In this document: piece after piece, positions 408-56,935 of the stretch
Layout: every line of letters begins with the position of its first letter
Position numbering within the stretch: the first letter of the stretch is position 1
Virus record (IMG/VR): IMGVR_UViG_3300044726_000022
Coordinates: 1-59,647 of that record
Strand: one strand, 5' to 3'
Length of the DNA: 59,647 nucleotides
Source of the DNA: a virus
Notes under the pieces: model-generated
Seen by the model: the letters and a program-made list of their open reading frames with translations, nothing else
Database searches by the model: none
What the model was told of the DNA's origin: nothing
Position numbers and translations under genes: made by a program

Positions 408-1234
408 TGGCTCAGCGCCCGGAAGAGATCACCATCAGGAGTATTGGCACCCTGCCAGGGCGACTGCCGCTGAACGAGGGGAACGTCCTCGCGCTCATGC
501 AGTCGATCAAGGAGGTTGGCCTGCTCCAGCCCATCGTCGTGGCGCGCAAGCGCCACGGCGTCTTTCTGGTGGCAGGGTATCACCGGCTGGAGGCGGCCAA
601 GCGCCTCAAGCACAAGGTCGTCACCGCCCTGGTCGAGAACGAGGACAGCCCGGCGGTCGAGCGCTGGCAGCTCCTCGCCGAGATCGATGAGAACCTCATC
701 CGCCGGGAGCTGACGGCAGCGCAGCGTGCCAGCCTGATCGGCCGCCGCAAGGCCGCCTACGAGGCGGTGCATCCTGAGACGAAGCACGGCGGCGCGAAGG
801 GCAACGTCGGGGAGGGGCGCGGCAAGGCCCCGGCTATTAAAGGCGCAAAGTCTGCGCCTTTAATAGGGGGCTCCTTCGTAGAGGACACCGCGACCAAGAC
901 CGGCCGCTCGACGCGCGCCGTCGAAGCAGACGCCACCCGCGCCAAGCGCCTCGGCGACGATCTCGGCAAGGTGGTTGGCACCTCGCTCGACAAGGGCGCT
1001 GAGCTGGATGCGCTGTCGGCGATGCCTGCGGAAGAGCGTGCGCCGATCATCGAGCGCGCGGTCGCTGGTGAGCGGGTGAGTGCCGTCAGGGATGACCCAC
1101 TGGTGGAGGCTAATCTCAAGCGCGCCTGGGAGGCGTTCCGCTCGGTCTGGCACCGGGCCCCTCCCGGCGCGAGGGCGGAGTTCGTCAGCATCAACCGCGA
1201 AGCTCTGCAAGAAATGTTCGACCACGAGCCTTGA
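407..1234 (+). CDS. ParB N-terminal domain (Srx-like) protein
   Basis: 275 aa. ...EVGLLQPIVVARKRHGVFLVAGYHRLEAAKRL... is the classic ParB/Srx box. Start shares one base with the upstream stop (TGATG). Confidence 0.85.
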   Translation: MAQRPEEITIRSIGTLPGRLPLNEGNVLALMQSIKEVGLLQPIVVARKRHGVFLVAGYHRLEAAKRLKHKVVTALVENEDSPAVERWQLLAEIDENLIRRELTAAQRASLIGRRKAAYEAVHPETKHGGAKGNVGEGRGKAPAIKGAKSAPLIGGSFVEDTATKTGRSTRAVEADATRAKRLGDDLGKVVGTSLDKGAELDALSAMPAEERAPIIERAVAGERVSAVRDDPLVEANLKRAWEAFRSVWHRAPPGARAEFVSINREALQEMFDHEP

Positions 1235-1282
1235 CCGCAGTCGGTCGTTCACCATTTAGGGGAAAGACCAAGGAGCACGACG

Positions 1283-44383: not shown

Positions 44384-44893
44384 ATGATCAAGGTTCGCTA
44401 CACCAGCATCGACCGCTGCAACACCACCCGCACCTTCAAGACCATCGAAGGCGCTCGCAAGTTCGCCCAGCATTGGGTCGGCGAGACGCCCGAACTGGGT
44501 GCCCAGCGGTCCTACGCCGTGTCCTTCGACGGCATCGGCAAGGTGGTCTGCACCGGCTGCACCCTGATGGACCTGTTCCCCAAGCTGGCGACGGAGGCCG
44601 CCGCCGAGGCCCGGCTGTACGCTCGCTCCTGGGACATCAACATGATCGAGGCCGAGAGCGACCACTACTTCGACGCCCGCCAGGAGCACGACGACTACGA
44701 GGCGAACGCCGACGCCGACTACATCCGCGAGGCCTACGCTGGCATGACCGAGACGCGCGAGCAGCTCGACGCTGAGGCGAAGGATCGCTTCGAAGAGGAC
44801 TGCGAGCGCACCTGCGACGACATCGAGACGCAGGGTGCCAAGTTCGGCCGGGTGTGGACCGGCAGCTACCCGACCGACGAGATCCCGTTCTGA
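44384..44893 (+). CDS. hypothetical protein with strongly acidic C-terminal half
   Basis: 169 aa; leader CGGAGCACGAC-ATG. About 26 D/E in the last 85 residues. Confidence 0.7.
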   Translation: MIKVRYTSIDRCNTTRTFKTIEGARKFAQHWVGETPELGAQRSYAVSFDGIGKVVCTGCTLMDLFPKLATEAAAEARLYARSWDINMIEAESDHYFDARQEHDDYEANADADYIREAYAGMTETREQLDAEAKDRFEEDCERTCDDIETQGAKFGRVWTGSYPTDEIPF

Positions 44894-53459: not shown

Positions 53460-53815
53460 CAGTCACCCTTGAGCTTGCGGTTGGCGTTACCAGCCACCTC
53501 CAGCATGGTGACGACCCGGTCGATCACCCGGTCGAGGCAGGCCATGTCCTCAGTGTGCCCCTCCGCCTCCTCCCGCTCCTGCTGCAGGAAGGCGAGCACC
53601 CGCTCGTAGGCCGCGACGTCGCCGGGATGCGTGAGCTGATGCCAGGAGCGGATCGGCCGCACGACGACGTAGCCACCGACCTCCATGCCGATGGCCCCCT
53701 CGCGCGTGACGAACACCCGCGCCGGGCTCATGCCGGTCGGCGGGATCGGCTCCACGAACAGCTCCCTGTCGGTGTTCAGCCTCGGCTCGTTGTCGTCAGT
53801 CACGCACCCCTCCAT
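53459..53815 (-). CDS. hypothetical protein
   Basis: 118 aa track ORF. Confidence 0.6.
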   Translation of the reverse strand: MEGCVTDDNEPRLNTDRELFVEPIPPTGMSPARVFVTREGAIGMEVGGYVVVRPIRSWHQLTHPGDVAAYERVLAFLQQEREEAEGHTEDMACLDRVIDRVVTMLEVAGNANRKLKGD

Positions 53816-55431
53816 TTTTCTGCATGGGGTCCGTTACTCCCCCAGGCACGGCTCTCGCTGCGGCGCTTCTCCCTGATCCAGGCCTTCTTGCTCTCCTCGA
53901 TGTAGTCCAGGGTCGCGTCCGACACGAACGCCGCCGGGGCTACTTCGCGCGCTGGCCAGACGCCCAGCCGTTCGCGGTATTTGTTGGACGCCCAGCCGCT
54001 CTTGTAGCTGCGCTGCGCGCCGTAGCAGCGCAACTCCGCCAGGAACTGCAGCTTCTCGGCCATGTCGTCGGGATTGGGCCACCCGTCGCTGCGCCGCACC
54101 TTGGGCTTCGGCTTCAATTCGCGCAGCTCGCCTTCGAGCACCTCTTGCTTGCTGACGGCCTTCGCCGTGAACCCGCAGTTCGGGCACGTCGCGACCTTGG
54201 GCGGGCGCAGGAACGTGCATTGCGGGCACTCTTTCGGGAGCGTGATCCTGTCGGTGCGGTTGGCGCTCTTCTCGGCCCCGCAGTCGAGCCCGGTGTAGCT
54301 CTGGTCGATCTCGGTCACGAACCCCAGGCGGGTGTGGTTGTCACTGTGGTCGAGGATCAGGCAGTGGTCCTTGCCGGGCGCGGTCCTCAAGCCCCTGCCG
54401 ATGATCTGTACGAACAGCATGTCCGACTTGGTCGGGCGGCACATGCTGATGCACCGCACGTCCCAGTCTATACCTGTGGTCAAAGTGCCCACGTTCACCA
54501 CCACCGGGTAGGCACCTGACGCGAACTTCTCCCTGATCGACCGGCGGCCCTCGACCTCGATGCCTTCCTTGGTGATCTTCGTCTCGTCGCCGGTAAAGGC
54601 GTCCTGATAGCCGGTCGGGATGCCCGCTTCGAGGAACCGGCGCTGCAGCAGCTTGGCGTGCGCGCGGTCGACGGCGTAGCAGAGCGTCGGCCTCCCCTCC
54701 GCCTTCTCCAGCCACGTCTGCACCGCGTCGGCGACCAGGGCACCGCCCTGCATCACCTTGCTGGTGTCGCCCTCGTGGTAGTCGCCAGCGACCGTTCGAA
54801 CGCCGGTCATGTCAGGGTGCGACGGCGCGAACACCTTGAACGGCGACAGCCGCCCCTGCTCGATCAGATCCTCAGTCGTGGTGGCGACGATCAGGCACGG
54901 CTCGCGCTCAGCCGCCGGAACCTTCCACGGCCCCTGGAACAGCTTCCCCAGGCCCTTCGTCCATGGCGTGGCGCTGAGCCCGATCACCGGGCACTGCCAG
55001 CCGTCGACCTCGCTGAACCACTGCGTGTAGATCTGGAAGAGCCGATGCACCTCGTCCACCAGCACGAGATCCGCTGGCCACATTTTTCGCTTCATCAGCG
55101 TCTGCACCGACGCGATCTGCACCGGCATGTCCCAGTGCGATAGCTCGTGCGTGGCCTGGATGACGCCGACCTCGGTAATGCCCTGGCTCCTGAACATCTC
55201 GACCGTCTGGTCGATCAGGCCGAGCGCCGGAACGGTGAATAGCACCCGCTTATTGCGGGACAGCGCTCCCCTCACAATGGCGCTCGCCAGGACCGTCTTG
55301 CCGAACCCGGTCGGGGCTTGCATGCACACCCGGCGGTGACCCGCCGCTATCTTCTGTCGGAGAGCCTGCAAGGCCTCCATCTGGTCGTCGCGCAGCTCTT
55401 TCAGCGTCGTGCTCGGTGTTACGTCCAGCAT
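53800..55431 (-). CDS. superfamily-2 DEAD/DEAH-box helicase with C-terminal zinc ribbon
   Basis: 543 aa. Motif I MQAPTGFGKT, motif II LVLVDEVH, motif III GLSATP. Later CPQCTFLRPPKVATCPNCGF. Leader AGGAGCACGACG-ATG. Confidence 0.9.
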   Translation of the reverse strand: MLDVTPSTTLKELRDDQMEALQALRQKIAAGHRRVCMQAPTGFGKTVLASAIVRGALSRNKRVLFTVPALGLIDQTVEMFRSQGITEVGVIQATHELSHWDMPVQIASVQTLMKRKMWPADLVLVDEVHRLFQIYTQWFSEVDGWQCPVIGLSATPWTKGLGKLFQGPWKVPAAEREPCLIVATTTEDLIEQGRLSPFKVFAPSHPDMTGVRTVAGDYHEGDTSKVMQGGALVADAVQTWLEKAEGRPTLCYAVDRAHAKLLQRRFLEAGIPTGYQDAFTGDETKITKEGIEVEGRRSIREKFASGAYPVVVNVGTLTTGIDWDVRCISMCRPTKSDMLFVQIIGRGLRTAPGKDHCLILDHSDNHTRLGFVTEIDQSYTGLDCGAEKSANRTDRITLPKECPQCTFLRPPKVATCPNCGFTAKAVSKQEVLEGELRELKPKPKVRRSDGWPNPDDMAEKLQFLAELRCYGAQRSYKSGWASNKYRERLGVWPAREVAPAAFVSDATLDYIEESKKAWIREKRRSESRAWGSNGPHAEKWRGA

Positions 55432-55717: not shown

Positions 55718-56005
55718 TCATTCCCACGGCGGCTTCGACAGGTCGCTCAGCACCTCCAGGGCGATGTCCGGCGGATTGGGCTCCAGCGGCTTCGTCTGCC
55801 TGATCCCCATCCGCTCCCGGTCGTAGGGCGTGAGCTGGTACCGCGCACCCTTCGCCTTGCGGCGCTCCTCCCTCCTGGCCCTGGCCTCCAGCTCGTCGCG
55901 CGGCCTGGAGGCCACCATCCTGCCGTTGTCGAGCACCTTGCCGGGCTCGTATTTTTCCTCCGTCGCCCAGTACTTCCGGGTCCGTCTCCAGTCCATCCCA
56001 GCCAT
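55718..56005 (-). CDS. hypothetical basic protein
   Basis: 95 aa from ATG 56005 (GGGAGA 5 nt upstream): MAGMDWRRTRKYWATEEKYEPGK... Confidence 0.6.
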   Translation of the reverse strand: MAGMDWRRTRKYWATEEKYEPGKVLDNGRMVASRPRDELEARARREERRKAKGARYQLTPYDRERMGIRQTKPLEPNPPDIALEVLSDLSKPPWE

Positions 56006-56509
56006 GCAAATCTCCCGATTTTGGACATACCTCCACTTTGTACCTCCAGAGATGGAGGCACGTTCCTCAAGGGGCGTCGAGGCGCGGAAGTGGACACCGC
56101 GCACGGCTTGGAGCCGTCGTCCCACTCGACGAAAGGGCTGCGCGCACGCCTGGGGCTGGACTGCGATGTGGGCCGGGACCACCGAGCGGACACCACGCAG
56201 CAACGGTTCTTGGCCAGCCATGGCCATGCTCAGCTCAGGCGGCGCTGCCTACAGTGGGATGGTGGGACCTCCGAGCACCATCCCCGCAGCAACAAGTCGC
56301 GGGCCGTCTGAACGACCTATGGCGGGATGACCTTGGGAGGGGGATTGATGCGCGGACGCCCATAGACTATATGGGGCACACGCTCTCCTCGTGGGGACAC
56401 CGAGCCACAGGATTGAGCGAGTACCGGGAATGGTTGGTCGTGCTCCCATCCCGGTGCGACCCTTTCGGGCCGCTCCTCAATCTGGGGGGCGGCCCGCTTC
56501 ATGTCAAGC
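56006..56509. other. structured non-coding segment (candidate ncRNA and/or iteron-type origin)
   Basis: No frame with the GC3 bias of real genes. Multiple 5-9 bp stems, including a nested three-way junction (56076-56130) and a 9-bp stem (56256-56284). Four same-orientation GGAC(A/C)CC-type repeats. Orphan leader copy at 56431-56447. Confidence 0.5.
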
Positions 56510-56935
56510 TCAGCGCGGCCTCGCCGGGATCTTGTAGATCGCCTTGTGGTGCGCGCAGTACGGCTCCTCGCCGATCCGGTCGAGCGCGCAGGTGCGCCAG
56601 ATATGCGGATCAGTGCCCTTCTCGTAGACCACCAGCGCCCGGCAATGTCTGTGATCGCGGTCGACCCACGGGATCGTCTCGCCGTGCTTCCGCACCGGCC
56701 TGGGGATAACTATGGGGATAACCGGCGACGGCTTCTTCCACCGACGGTGCTGCACCAGTCCGCTCCTGGCCCCCTGGCTGGAACCGCCCAGGCCCTGCAG
56801 GCCCATGCGGCGGACGTGGCCCATGATGGCCGACCGCGTGCTCTTGATCGCCTTAGCTATCTCGCCGGACGGCCTCTTGTCGAGCCACATCCGGCGGATC
56901 GTAGCCTTGTCTTCGTCACTCGTGGGGTGGGACAT
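56510..56935 (-). CDS. gcrA: GcrA-like cell-cycle transcriptional regulator
   Basis: 141 aa. N-terminal ...ATIRRMWLDKRPSGEIAKAIKSTRSAIMGHVRRMGL matches the GcrA N-terminal DNA-binding domain. C-terminal ...C..(x)..EEPYCAHHKAIY matches the GcrA C-terminal Cys/His pattern. Confidence 0.8.
   Translation of the reverse strand: MSHPTSDEDKATIRRMWLDKRPSGEIAKAIKSTRSAIMGHVRRMGLQGLGGSSQGARSGLVQHRRWKKPSPVIPIVIPRPVRKHGETIPWVDRDHRHCRALVVYEKGTDPHIWRTCALDRIGEEPYCAHHKAIYKIPARPR

Follow-up and report, generated by a model that had tools for sequence, protein, structure and literature searches.

Cluster K mycobacteriophages carry 13-bp start-associated sequences (SAS), along with promoters of the extended SAS type (Pope et al. 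2011, PMC3203893; Adephagia study, PMC11373665). Orphan SAS sites in the reverse orientation were noted previously (Pope et al. 2011, PMC3203893) and left without explanation, and the role of the SAS is still called unknown in papers of 2024 and 2025. Knowledge of hyper-conserved start-associated sequences goes back to 2011.

Several phages encode antisense RNAs that cover a ribosome-binding site, including P22 Sar (directed against ant), lambda OOP, and the c4 RNA of P1/P7. Countertranscripts also control replication genes in ColE1 (RNA I/II) and R1 (CopA/CopT). In the decoy RNAs of the CsrB/RsmZ type, a Shine-Dalgarno-like GGA in a hairpin loop mimics the leaders to which a regulator binds.

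The window analyzed here, which is the whole 59,647-nucleotide stretch of DNA, is a complete phage record of IMG/VR (59,647 bp, 66% G+C) with direct terminal repeats at its ends. A near-identical ribosome-binding leader precedes about 19 of its genes. The leader and the cluster K SAS are alike in being hyper-conserved asymmetric motifs that combine GGAG with non-Shine-Dalgarno bases, and in lying a few nucleotides before the ATG of 11–19 mostly non-structural genes. In both, a subset follows repeated promoter cassettes that incorporate an inverted repeat (seven in Adephagia and seven here), and there is one orphan copy oriented opposite to most of the sites. The motif sequences are unrelated (SAS GGGATAGGAGCCC versus GGAGCACGAC here), as are the phage and its probable host, and the orphan does not match the SAS motif GGGATAGGAGCCC with up to two mismatches. 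The complement of the orphan is on the gene-carrying strand in cluster K, whereas here it is opposite to the local genes and would need its own promoter. The resemblance is thus one of analogy and not of homology.

The leader family and its orphan copy

DNA near-identical to that of this phage is found in metagenomes of soil, groundwater, and sediment, the sequencing runs listed as containing the stretch include no RNA run, and GenBank phages contain neither a DNA match nor a match to the GcrA protein. The only hints of an alphaproteobacterial host are the GcrA-like gene, CTTG-type -35 boxes, and a terminase with 47.5% identity to Brucella Tb-like phages, although a Microcystis phage scored higher and has the best terminase identity (52%).

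The exact core of the leader, GGAGCACGAC, has 18 copies genome-wide (15 on the + strand and three on the - strand), and with up to one mismatch the core is observed 32 times, compared with 9.5 ± 2.8 in shuffled sequences. An ATG follows 0–3 nt after the core in 16 of the 18 exact copies, and also in four one-mismatch variants. Many leaders have two boxes, the first ending in ACGAC and separated by C(C)AACCAA from a second box, GGAGCACGAC, which is followed by N0-3 and the ATG; the CA-rich CAACCAA sits upstream of GGAGCACGAC in true leaders. The helicase leader is of this double-box type, and reads TGAGCACGAC-AACCCCAGA-GGAGCACGAC-G-ATG. At the helicase start GAGCACGAC occurs three times within 56 nt (55461-55406, - strand), once before the leader, once as the leader itself, and once 17 nt into the coding sequence. 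By eye, the leader showed no pairing with the 16S rRNA 3′ end that extends past AAAGGAG. The early promoter cassette (CTTGyr-N17-CATmT, its spacer containing the palindrome GGGAGG..CTCC) is present seven times between 44015 and 51112, on the + strand only.

Two exact cores are without a following ATG, one of them intragenic (44683) and the other the orphan. The intragenic core (44683-44692, + strand) lies within a 169-aa gene (44384..44893) and has no start codon after it. The orphan is in a gene-free gap between a gcrA-like gene and a gene coding for a 95-aa basic protein (Table 1), and the gap adjoins the upstream side of the replication genes, the 95-aa gene being followed by a 154-aa gene and then by an SF2 helicase gene with a true leader (55431..53800). 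No frame in the gap has the GC3 of ~0.9 of real genes in a codon-bias check, its ORFs have no family hits in Pfam or PHROG, and small ORFs on either strand were ruled out on these two grounds. Searches of the gap with Rfam covariance models and ARAGORN gave no match at the gathering score (noise only, E > 3), no tRNA, and no tmRNA.

Table 1. Coordinates of features in and around the gap that holds the orphan leader copy
Feature	Coordinates	Strand	Details
Gene-free gap	56006..56509	-	504 nt; between gcrA-like gene and 95-aa gene; no coding signal
Upstream gene, 141-aa GcrA-like protein	56510..56935	-	PF07750, E 4e-5, just under the curated cut-off
Downstream gene, 95-aa basic protein	55718..56005	-	GC3 0.92
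Orphan-leader hairpin	56423..56455	-	5′ arm ACCGGGA-UGG, 12-nt loop GAGCACGACCAA, 3′ arm CCA-U-UCCCGGU
Hairpin A	56421..56457	+	Same palindrome; anti-leader loop UUGGUCGUGCUC with anti-SD-like CUCC; -21 kcal/mol, z -3.0
Hairpin B	56466..56496	+	14 bp, 3-nt loop; -29.8 kcal/mol on + (two U-G pairs) versus -21.7 on -
GNRA-tetraloop hairpin	56456..56473	-	GCGGCCC-GAAA-GGGUCGC, one G-U pair; directly 5′ of orphan hairpin
Predicted three-way junction	56411..56482	-	Helix GAUUGAG (56482..56476)/CUCAAUC (56417..56411) encloses GNRA and orphan hairpins
Hairpin unit GTTGCTG..GCUCGGnGGUCCC.., two copies	56293..56242 and 56204..56155	-	89 nt apart; in gap 3′ half, not the orphan
Promoter-like ATTGAT-N17-CTATAT	56344-56372	+	10/12; predicted start ~56379; reads into hairpin, 45 nt upstream of it
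Promoter-like CTTGAC-N17-CCAGAT	56480..56508	-	10/12; 2 nt after gcrA-like stop codon; predicted start ~56473; reads into hairpin
Promoter-like CTTGAC-16-CCATTT	1230-1257	+	10/12; end of ParB-like gene, just before leader-bearing gene 1283

The first-pass annotation had described a leader copy without a start codon in the loop of a - strand hairpin, and the sequence is as described, with 56454..56424 reading CCGGGA TGGGAGCACGACCAACCAT TCCCGG. The CCGGGA/TCCCGG stem that it named is present but was understated, as ACCGGGA (56455..56449) pairs with TCCCGGT (56429..56423) and UGG (56448..56446) with CCA (56433..56431), such that the true stem has 7 perfect bp and three more pairs (10 bp in all), and the loop (56445..56434) is only 12 nt. 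Both leader elements are there, the core GGAGCACGAC (56446..56437), which is one of the 18 exact copies, and the linker CAACCA (56436..56431), but their order is not that of a leader since the CA element is downstream; the CA-rich CCAACCAA is absent upstream of the core and GCACCGGGATG is there instead. The orphan corresponds to box 1 and the linker of a double-box leader, minus box 2 and the ATG. There is no ATG, GTG, or TTG within 8 nt after the core, and the frames that follow have neither coding bias nor homologs.

A chance match had been judged unlikely, and the counts agree: chance would yield the 19-mer, at up to three mismatches, 0.01 times, and ACGACCAACCA, at up to one mismatch, is present five times against an expectation of 0.6, in addition to the excess of cores noted above. 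Of the two leaders to which perfect complementarity had been claimed, that of 51388 contains ACGACCAACCA exactly, whereas that of 47487 has an extra C. A perfect flanking inverted repeat of at least 6 bp is present at the orphan only (7 bp), the other 17 cores having at most 4 bp, and the background probability of such a repeat is 0.04. The predicted unpaired probability of the core is also highest in the orphan (0.84, compared with 0.30–0.59 for the other cores). The orphan is a purpose-built-looking hairpin display of the leader, and is neither a start site nor a product of chance.

Convergent promoter-like sites and an antisense reading

A scan with an E. coli-type consensus found no promoter or terminator at the hairpin region, and the seven early promoter cassettes of the phage look different, with none near the hairpin on either strand. 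The alphaproteobacterial sigma-70 consensus is CTTGAC-N17-CTATAT (PMC2873474). There are three 10/12 matches to it genome-wide, two of which face each other across the orphan hairpin with predicted starts ~95 nt apart; this consensus is rhizobial/alphaproteobacterial, may not be that of the host, and was picked after the hexamers had been noticed. A 10/12 site arose in 3000 dinucleotide shuffles of the gap at rates of 1.4% (+ strand) and 0.8% (- strand), and no shuffle had one on both strands; with a consensus selected post hoc and a host that is a guess, these figures overstate the true significance.

The palindrome is predicted to fold better on the + strand (-21 kcal/mol, z -3.0) than on the - strand (-15.7 kcal/mol, z -1.8), and a U-G pair of hairpin A (56422/56456) would become a C-A mismatch on the - strand; there are three such U-G pairs on the + strand overall. 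Wobble-pair asymmetry was rejected as a strand test, as strand-specific G-U pairs are present on both strands and do not discriminate. The + strand loop UUGGUCGUGCUC is carried on a 12-bp stem, with a mean unpaired probability of 0.54 over 56431-56447. Hairpin B is terminator-like, but its tail CUUCAUGU has four U in eight positions, is not a canonical U tract, and fails the terminator scan. An RNA starting at ~56379 on the + strand is predicted to form three hairpins (-68 kcal/mol), the middle one showing the anti-leader loop. Duplexes between this loop and 16 leaders are predicted at -21 to -28 kcal/mol, compared with -14.8 ± 3.3 for random genome windows, in line with the complementarity proposed at first pass from which they follow by construction.

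We tentatively favor a reading in which the hairpin serves two convergent RNAs, one sense and one antisense, as their pairing module at the head of a non-coding leader for the replication genes, which we regard as possible while giving it less than an even chance; its mechanism rests on predicted promoters. The putative + strand promoter ATTGAT-17-CTATAT would give an RNA of ~125 nt with three stem-loops, of which the middle one presents UUGGUCGUGCUC, exactly complementary to the leader core with its GGAG, and the last one is the 14-bp GC hairpin near 56500. The - strand promoter CTTGAC-17-CCAGAT, or read-through from upstream, would supply the complementary hairpin with its leader-like loop. 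The two loops could kiss in cis and tune the downstream replication genes, and in trans the + strand RNA could bind the identical GGAGCACGAC in 16 or more ribosome-binding leaders and so block initiation. A shared RNA partner would explain why the non-Shine-Dalgarno CACGAC is identical in all of the leaders.

As judged from the sequence, these features suggest that the orphan spot is read on both strands, and that it may be the source of a small RNA capable of covering every one of the leaders. It is doubtful, though a serious prospect, that the orphan encodes a dedicated anti-leader RNA whose loop pairs with the ~19 leaders and so switches off or times this gene class at translation. If the orphan is the gene for a leader-reading factor, or its docking site, a concrete and testable mechanism would follow, in which a single small RNA sets how an entire class of phage genes is translated.

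In favor of the convergent module we count the non-random copy, the unique 7-bp inverted repeat, the most exposed of the 18 cores, the facing promoter-like sites, the better + strand fold, the leader duplexes, and the analog in phage Anaya. Counted against it are the other-looking early cassettes, the null E. coli-type scan, the hairpin B tail CUUCAUGU, a good - strand fold (z -3.3), the position of the hairpin in the non-conserved part of the gap, and the invariance of all near-identical variants across it. The antisense RNA from the + strand that had been put forward at first pass draws some support from a promoter-like site, from more stable + strand hairpins, and from the 14-bp hairpin, but is weakened by the post hoc consensus, the missing U tract, and the absence of the element in the available relatives.

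As with P22 Sar, lambda OOP, and c4, the module would consist of a short structured RNA from a target-facing promoter with a loop complementary to a ribosome-binding region, here as a prediction only. Those RNAs act on one or two messages, whereas here there would be ~19 identical leaders in trans and a cis target without a start codon. The likeness to ColE1 and R1 lies in predicted convergent promoters ~95 nt apart in a replication-gene leader and in complementary apical loops suited to kissing; the differences are that no replication initiator or origin has been identified here, and that the loop is 12 nt rather than the 6–7 nt of classical kissing loops.

Sense-strand, relic, and DNA-level alternatives

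The orphan is sense to the flanking - strand genes, and is reversed only relative to most of the leader-bearing genes; it would therefore be present in any read-through operon transcript in its mimic form, the second of the two readings offered at first pass. A somewhat unlikely alternative is that the orphan acts on the sense strand only, as a leader mimic displayed in - strand operon RNA that titrates a factor or processes the message between the regulatory and replication genes. Its readers could be the 30S subunit/S1, a CsrA/RsmA-like regulator (as with GGA-loop decoys), or a RegB-like nuclease cutting GGAG. The flanking genes are both on the - strand with no terminator between them (none of the - strand hairpins in 56400-56512 is followed by the run of U that a Rho-independent terminator of the operon would have), and any read-through of the operon would be certain to include the sense copy in its RNA. 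No other copy has as single-stranded a core, and the orphan sits in a predicted three-way junction beside the GNRA-tetraloop hairpin (Table 1), the - strand fold of 56400-56512 having a z of -3.3. Against this, the predicted stem wholly or partly engages the first two G of GGAG, a single copy would be a weak sponge for ~19 targets, and the facing promoter-like sites are left unexplained. As in CsrB/RsmZ RNAs, the loop displays a Shine-Dalgarno-like GGA motif, but this is a single hairpin and not an array, it has no Rfam match, and no Csr/Rsm-like protein or other candidate binding protein was found.

Also on the - strand, AUCCCGG in the last codons of the GcrA-like gene (56517-56530) can pair with the orphan 5′ arm (56448-56461) over 14 nt with 79% complementarity, and this alternative helix would compete with the hairpin.

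Close variants of the phage (L036-L042) are 100% identical to the window from 56612 down to 55784, and their differences are clustered patches in the flanking genes; low-depth contigs from four DNA runs likewise show no difference from it in any part of the gap that they span. The flanking proteins led to more distant relatives, L045 by a GcrA-like homolog (47% identity), and L055/L056 and L057/L058 by homologs of the 95-aa protein (67–69% identity over about half its length). Where enough flank is present, the gene-free stretch before the small gene is 636 nt in L055 and 543 nt in L057, and L045 has at least 377 gene-free nt after its GcrA-like gene. A gene-free stretch of 500–640 nt directly upstream of the 95-aa homologs is always kept, near primase/helicase genes (L055:7365-8000; L057:7458-8000; window 56006-56509), and in L055 and L057 it is kept although the GcrA-like gene is located elsewhere. 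Helicase relatives (L020-L026) were set aside as too distant, with no common leader or synteny.

The 3′ half of the gap can be aligned with the relatives, whereas the 5′ part with the orphan is not conserved. In the 3′ half there is a hairpin unit that has two copies in the window and a single one in each relative (L045:928-977; L055:7767-7816; L057:7788-7836), in which the loop GCUCGGnGGUCCC is conserved and the stem sequences differ, with double changes in 5 of 13 consensus pairs. A loop that is kept while its stems differ argues that the gap acts as RNA on the - strand or as structured DNA, the former in keeping with the sense-only mimic. The GTTGCTG..GCUCGGnGGUCCC.. unit could represent a novel structured RNA, or else an origin element, linked to the 95-aa gene; pattern scans for it in viral, metagenome, and genome collections returned only the window's own sequence and chance matches.

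Neither an equivalent of the orphan nor GGAGCACGAC was found in L045, L055, or L057, which counts against the sense-only mimic too. As the relatives are without GGAGCACGAC and the 5′ part of the gap is not conserved, the orphan and the hyper-conserved leader are both lineage-specific. A loose leader, AAGGAGCAAC(C/G), precedes several genes in L055 and L057, and GGAGCA after the Shine-Dalgarno core looks like a trait of the lineage that was fixed as GGAGCACGAC in this phage. Scans of IMG/VR with a 16-mer and a 17-mer of the leader and with the promoter cassette gave only single chance matches in unrelated contigs; the match in L009/L019 was rejected as a tRNA-like 3′ end.

That the orphan is a relic, the 5′ half of a former double-box leader from which a deletion or rearrangement removed box 2, the start codon, and the gene, we consider unlikely. 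The copy does consist of box 1 and the linker of double-box leaders such as that of the helicase and ends exactly where box 2 should start, the exact core at 44683 is another that is not at a start, and the element is lineage-specific. A relic does not account for the 7-bp perfect inverted repeat, which is at none of the 17 other cores (at least 6 bp is expected in 4% of background), nor for the promoter-like sites and strong hairpins that cluster around the copy, and the frame that follows shows neither the coding signal nor the homologs by which a decayed gene would be recognized.

Less probable still is a DNA-level site, either a replication origin or a protein-binding control region, with the palindrome serving as a protein site or cruciform and the leader-like loop being incidental. 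The gap lies shortly before the helicase module, contains several repeats, both direct and inverted, and has its counterpart in the long gene-free stretch kept near primase/helicase genes in relatives. However, the 16-nt identity to leader elements would be left unexplained, the window's gap shows neither a clear iteron array nor an AT-rich unwinding stretch, and the half-sites would be 25 bp apart, centre to centre. A true leader for an unannotated small gene starting at a rare ATT (56430, 5 nt after the core) is very improbable: its frame is open for 61 codons, in frame with a 66-aa ORF (56249..56449), but 16 of 16 genuine leaders have ATG at 0–3 nt, the GC3 of the frame is 0.54 versus 0.89–0.92 in real genes, and it has no Pfam or PHROG match.

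The reverse SAS of cluster K phages

In Anaya, the only reverse SAS is found at the apex of a two-tier hairpin on the gene-carrying strand, as its 10-nt loop CCUCCUAUCC, within a 385-nt unannotated gap (L059:34850-34900, corresponding to 59849-59899 of the record). If the orphan described here does specify an anti-leader RNA, the same anti-leader logic would explain the cluster K SAS; the Anaya-like members sampled have an anti-SAS loop on the transcribed strand. Cluster K phages can be grown and engineered, and RNA-seq is published for Adephagia, and the idea is therefore testable there.

The reverse-SAS region is present in 138 cluster K genomes, in some of which the records annotate a hypothetical gene over the hairpin region, where coding is possible. 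All of the 11 genomes sampled retain the inner stem (shortened by deletion in one, Murucutumbu), and 10 retain the outer stem, which varies and has wobble pairs that fit the gene-carrying strand. The loop is anti-SAS in seven of the 11, a near variant in one, and different in three, and among the sampled phages the anti-SAS loop is found mainly in Anayavirus members.
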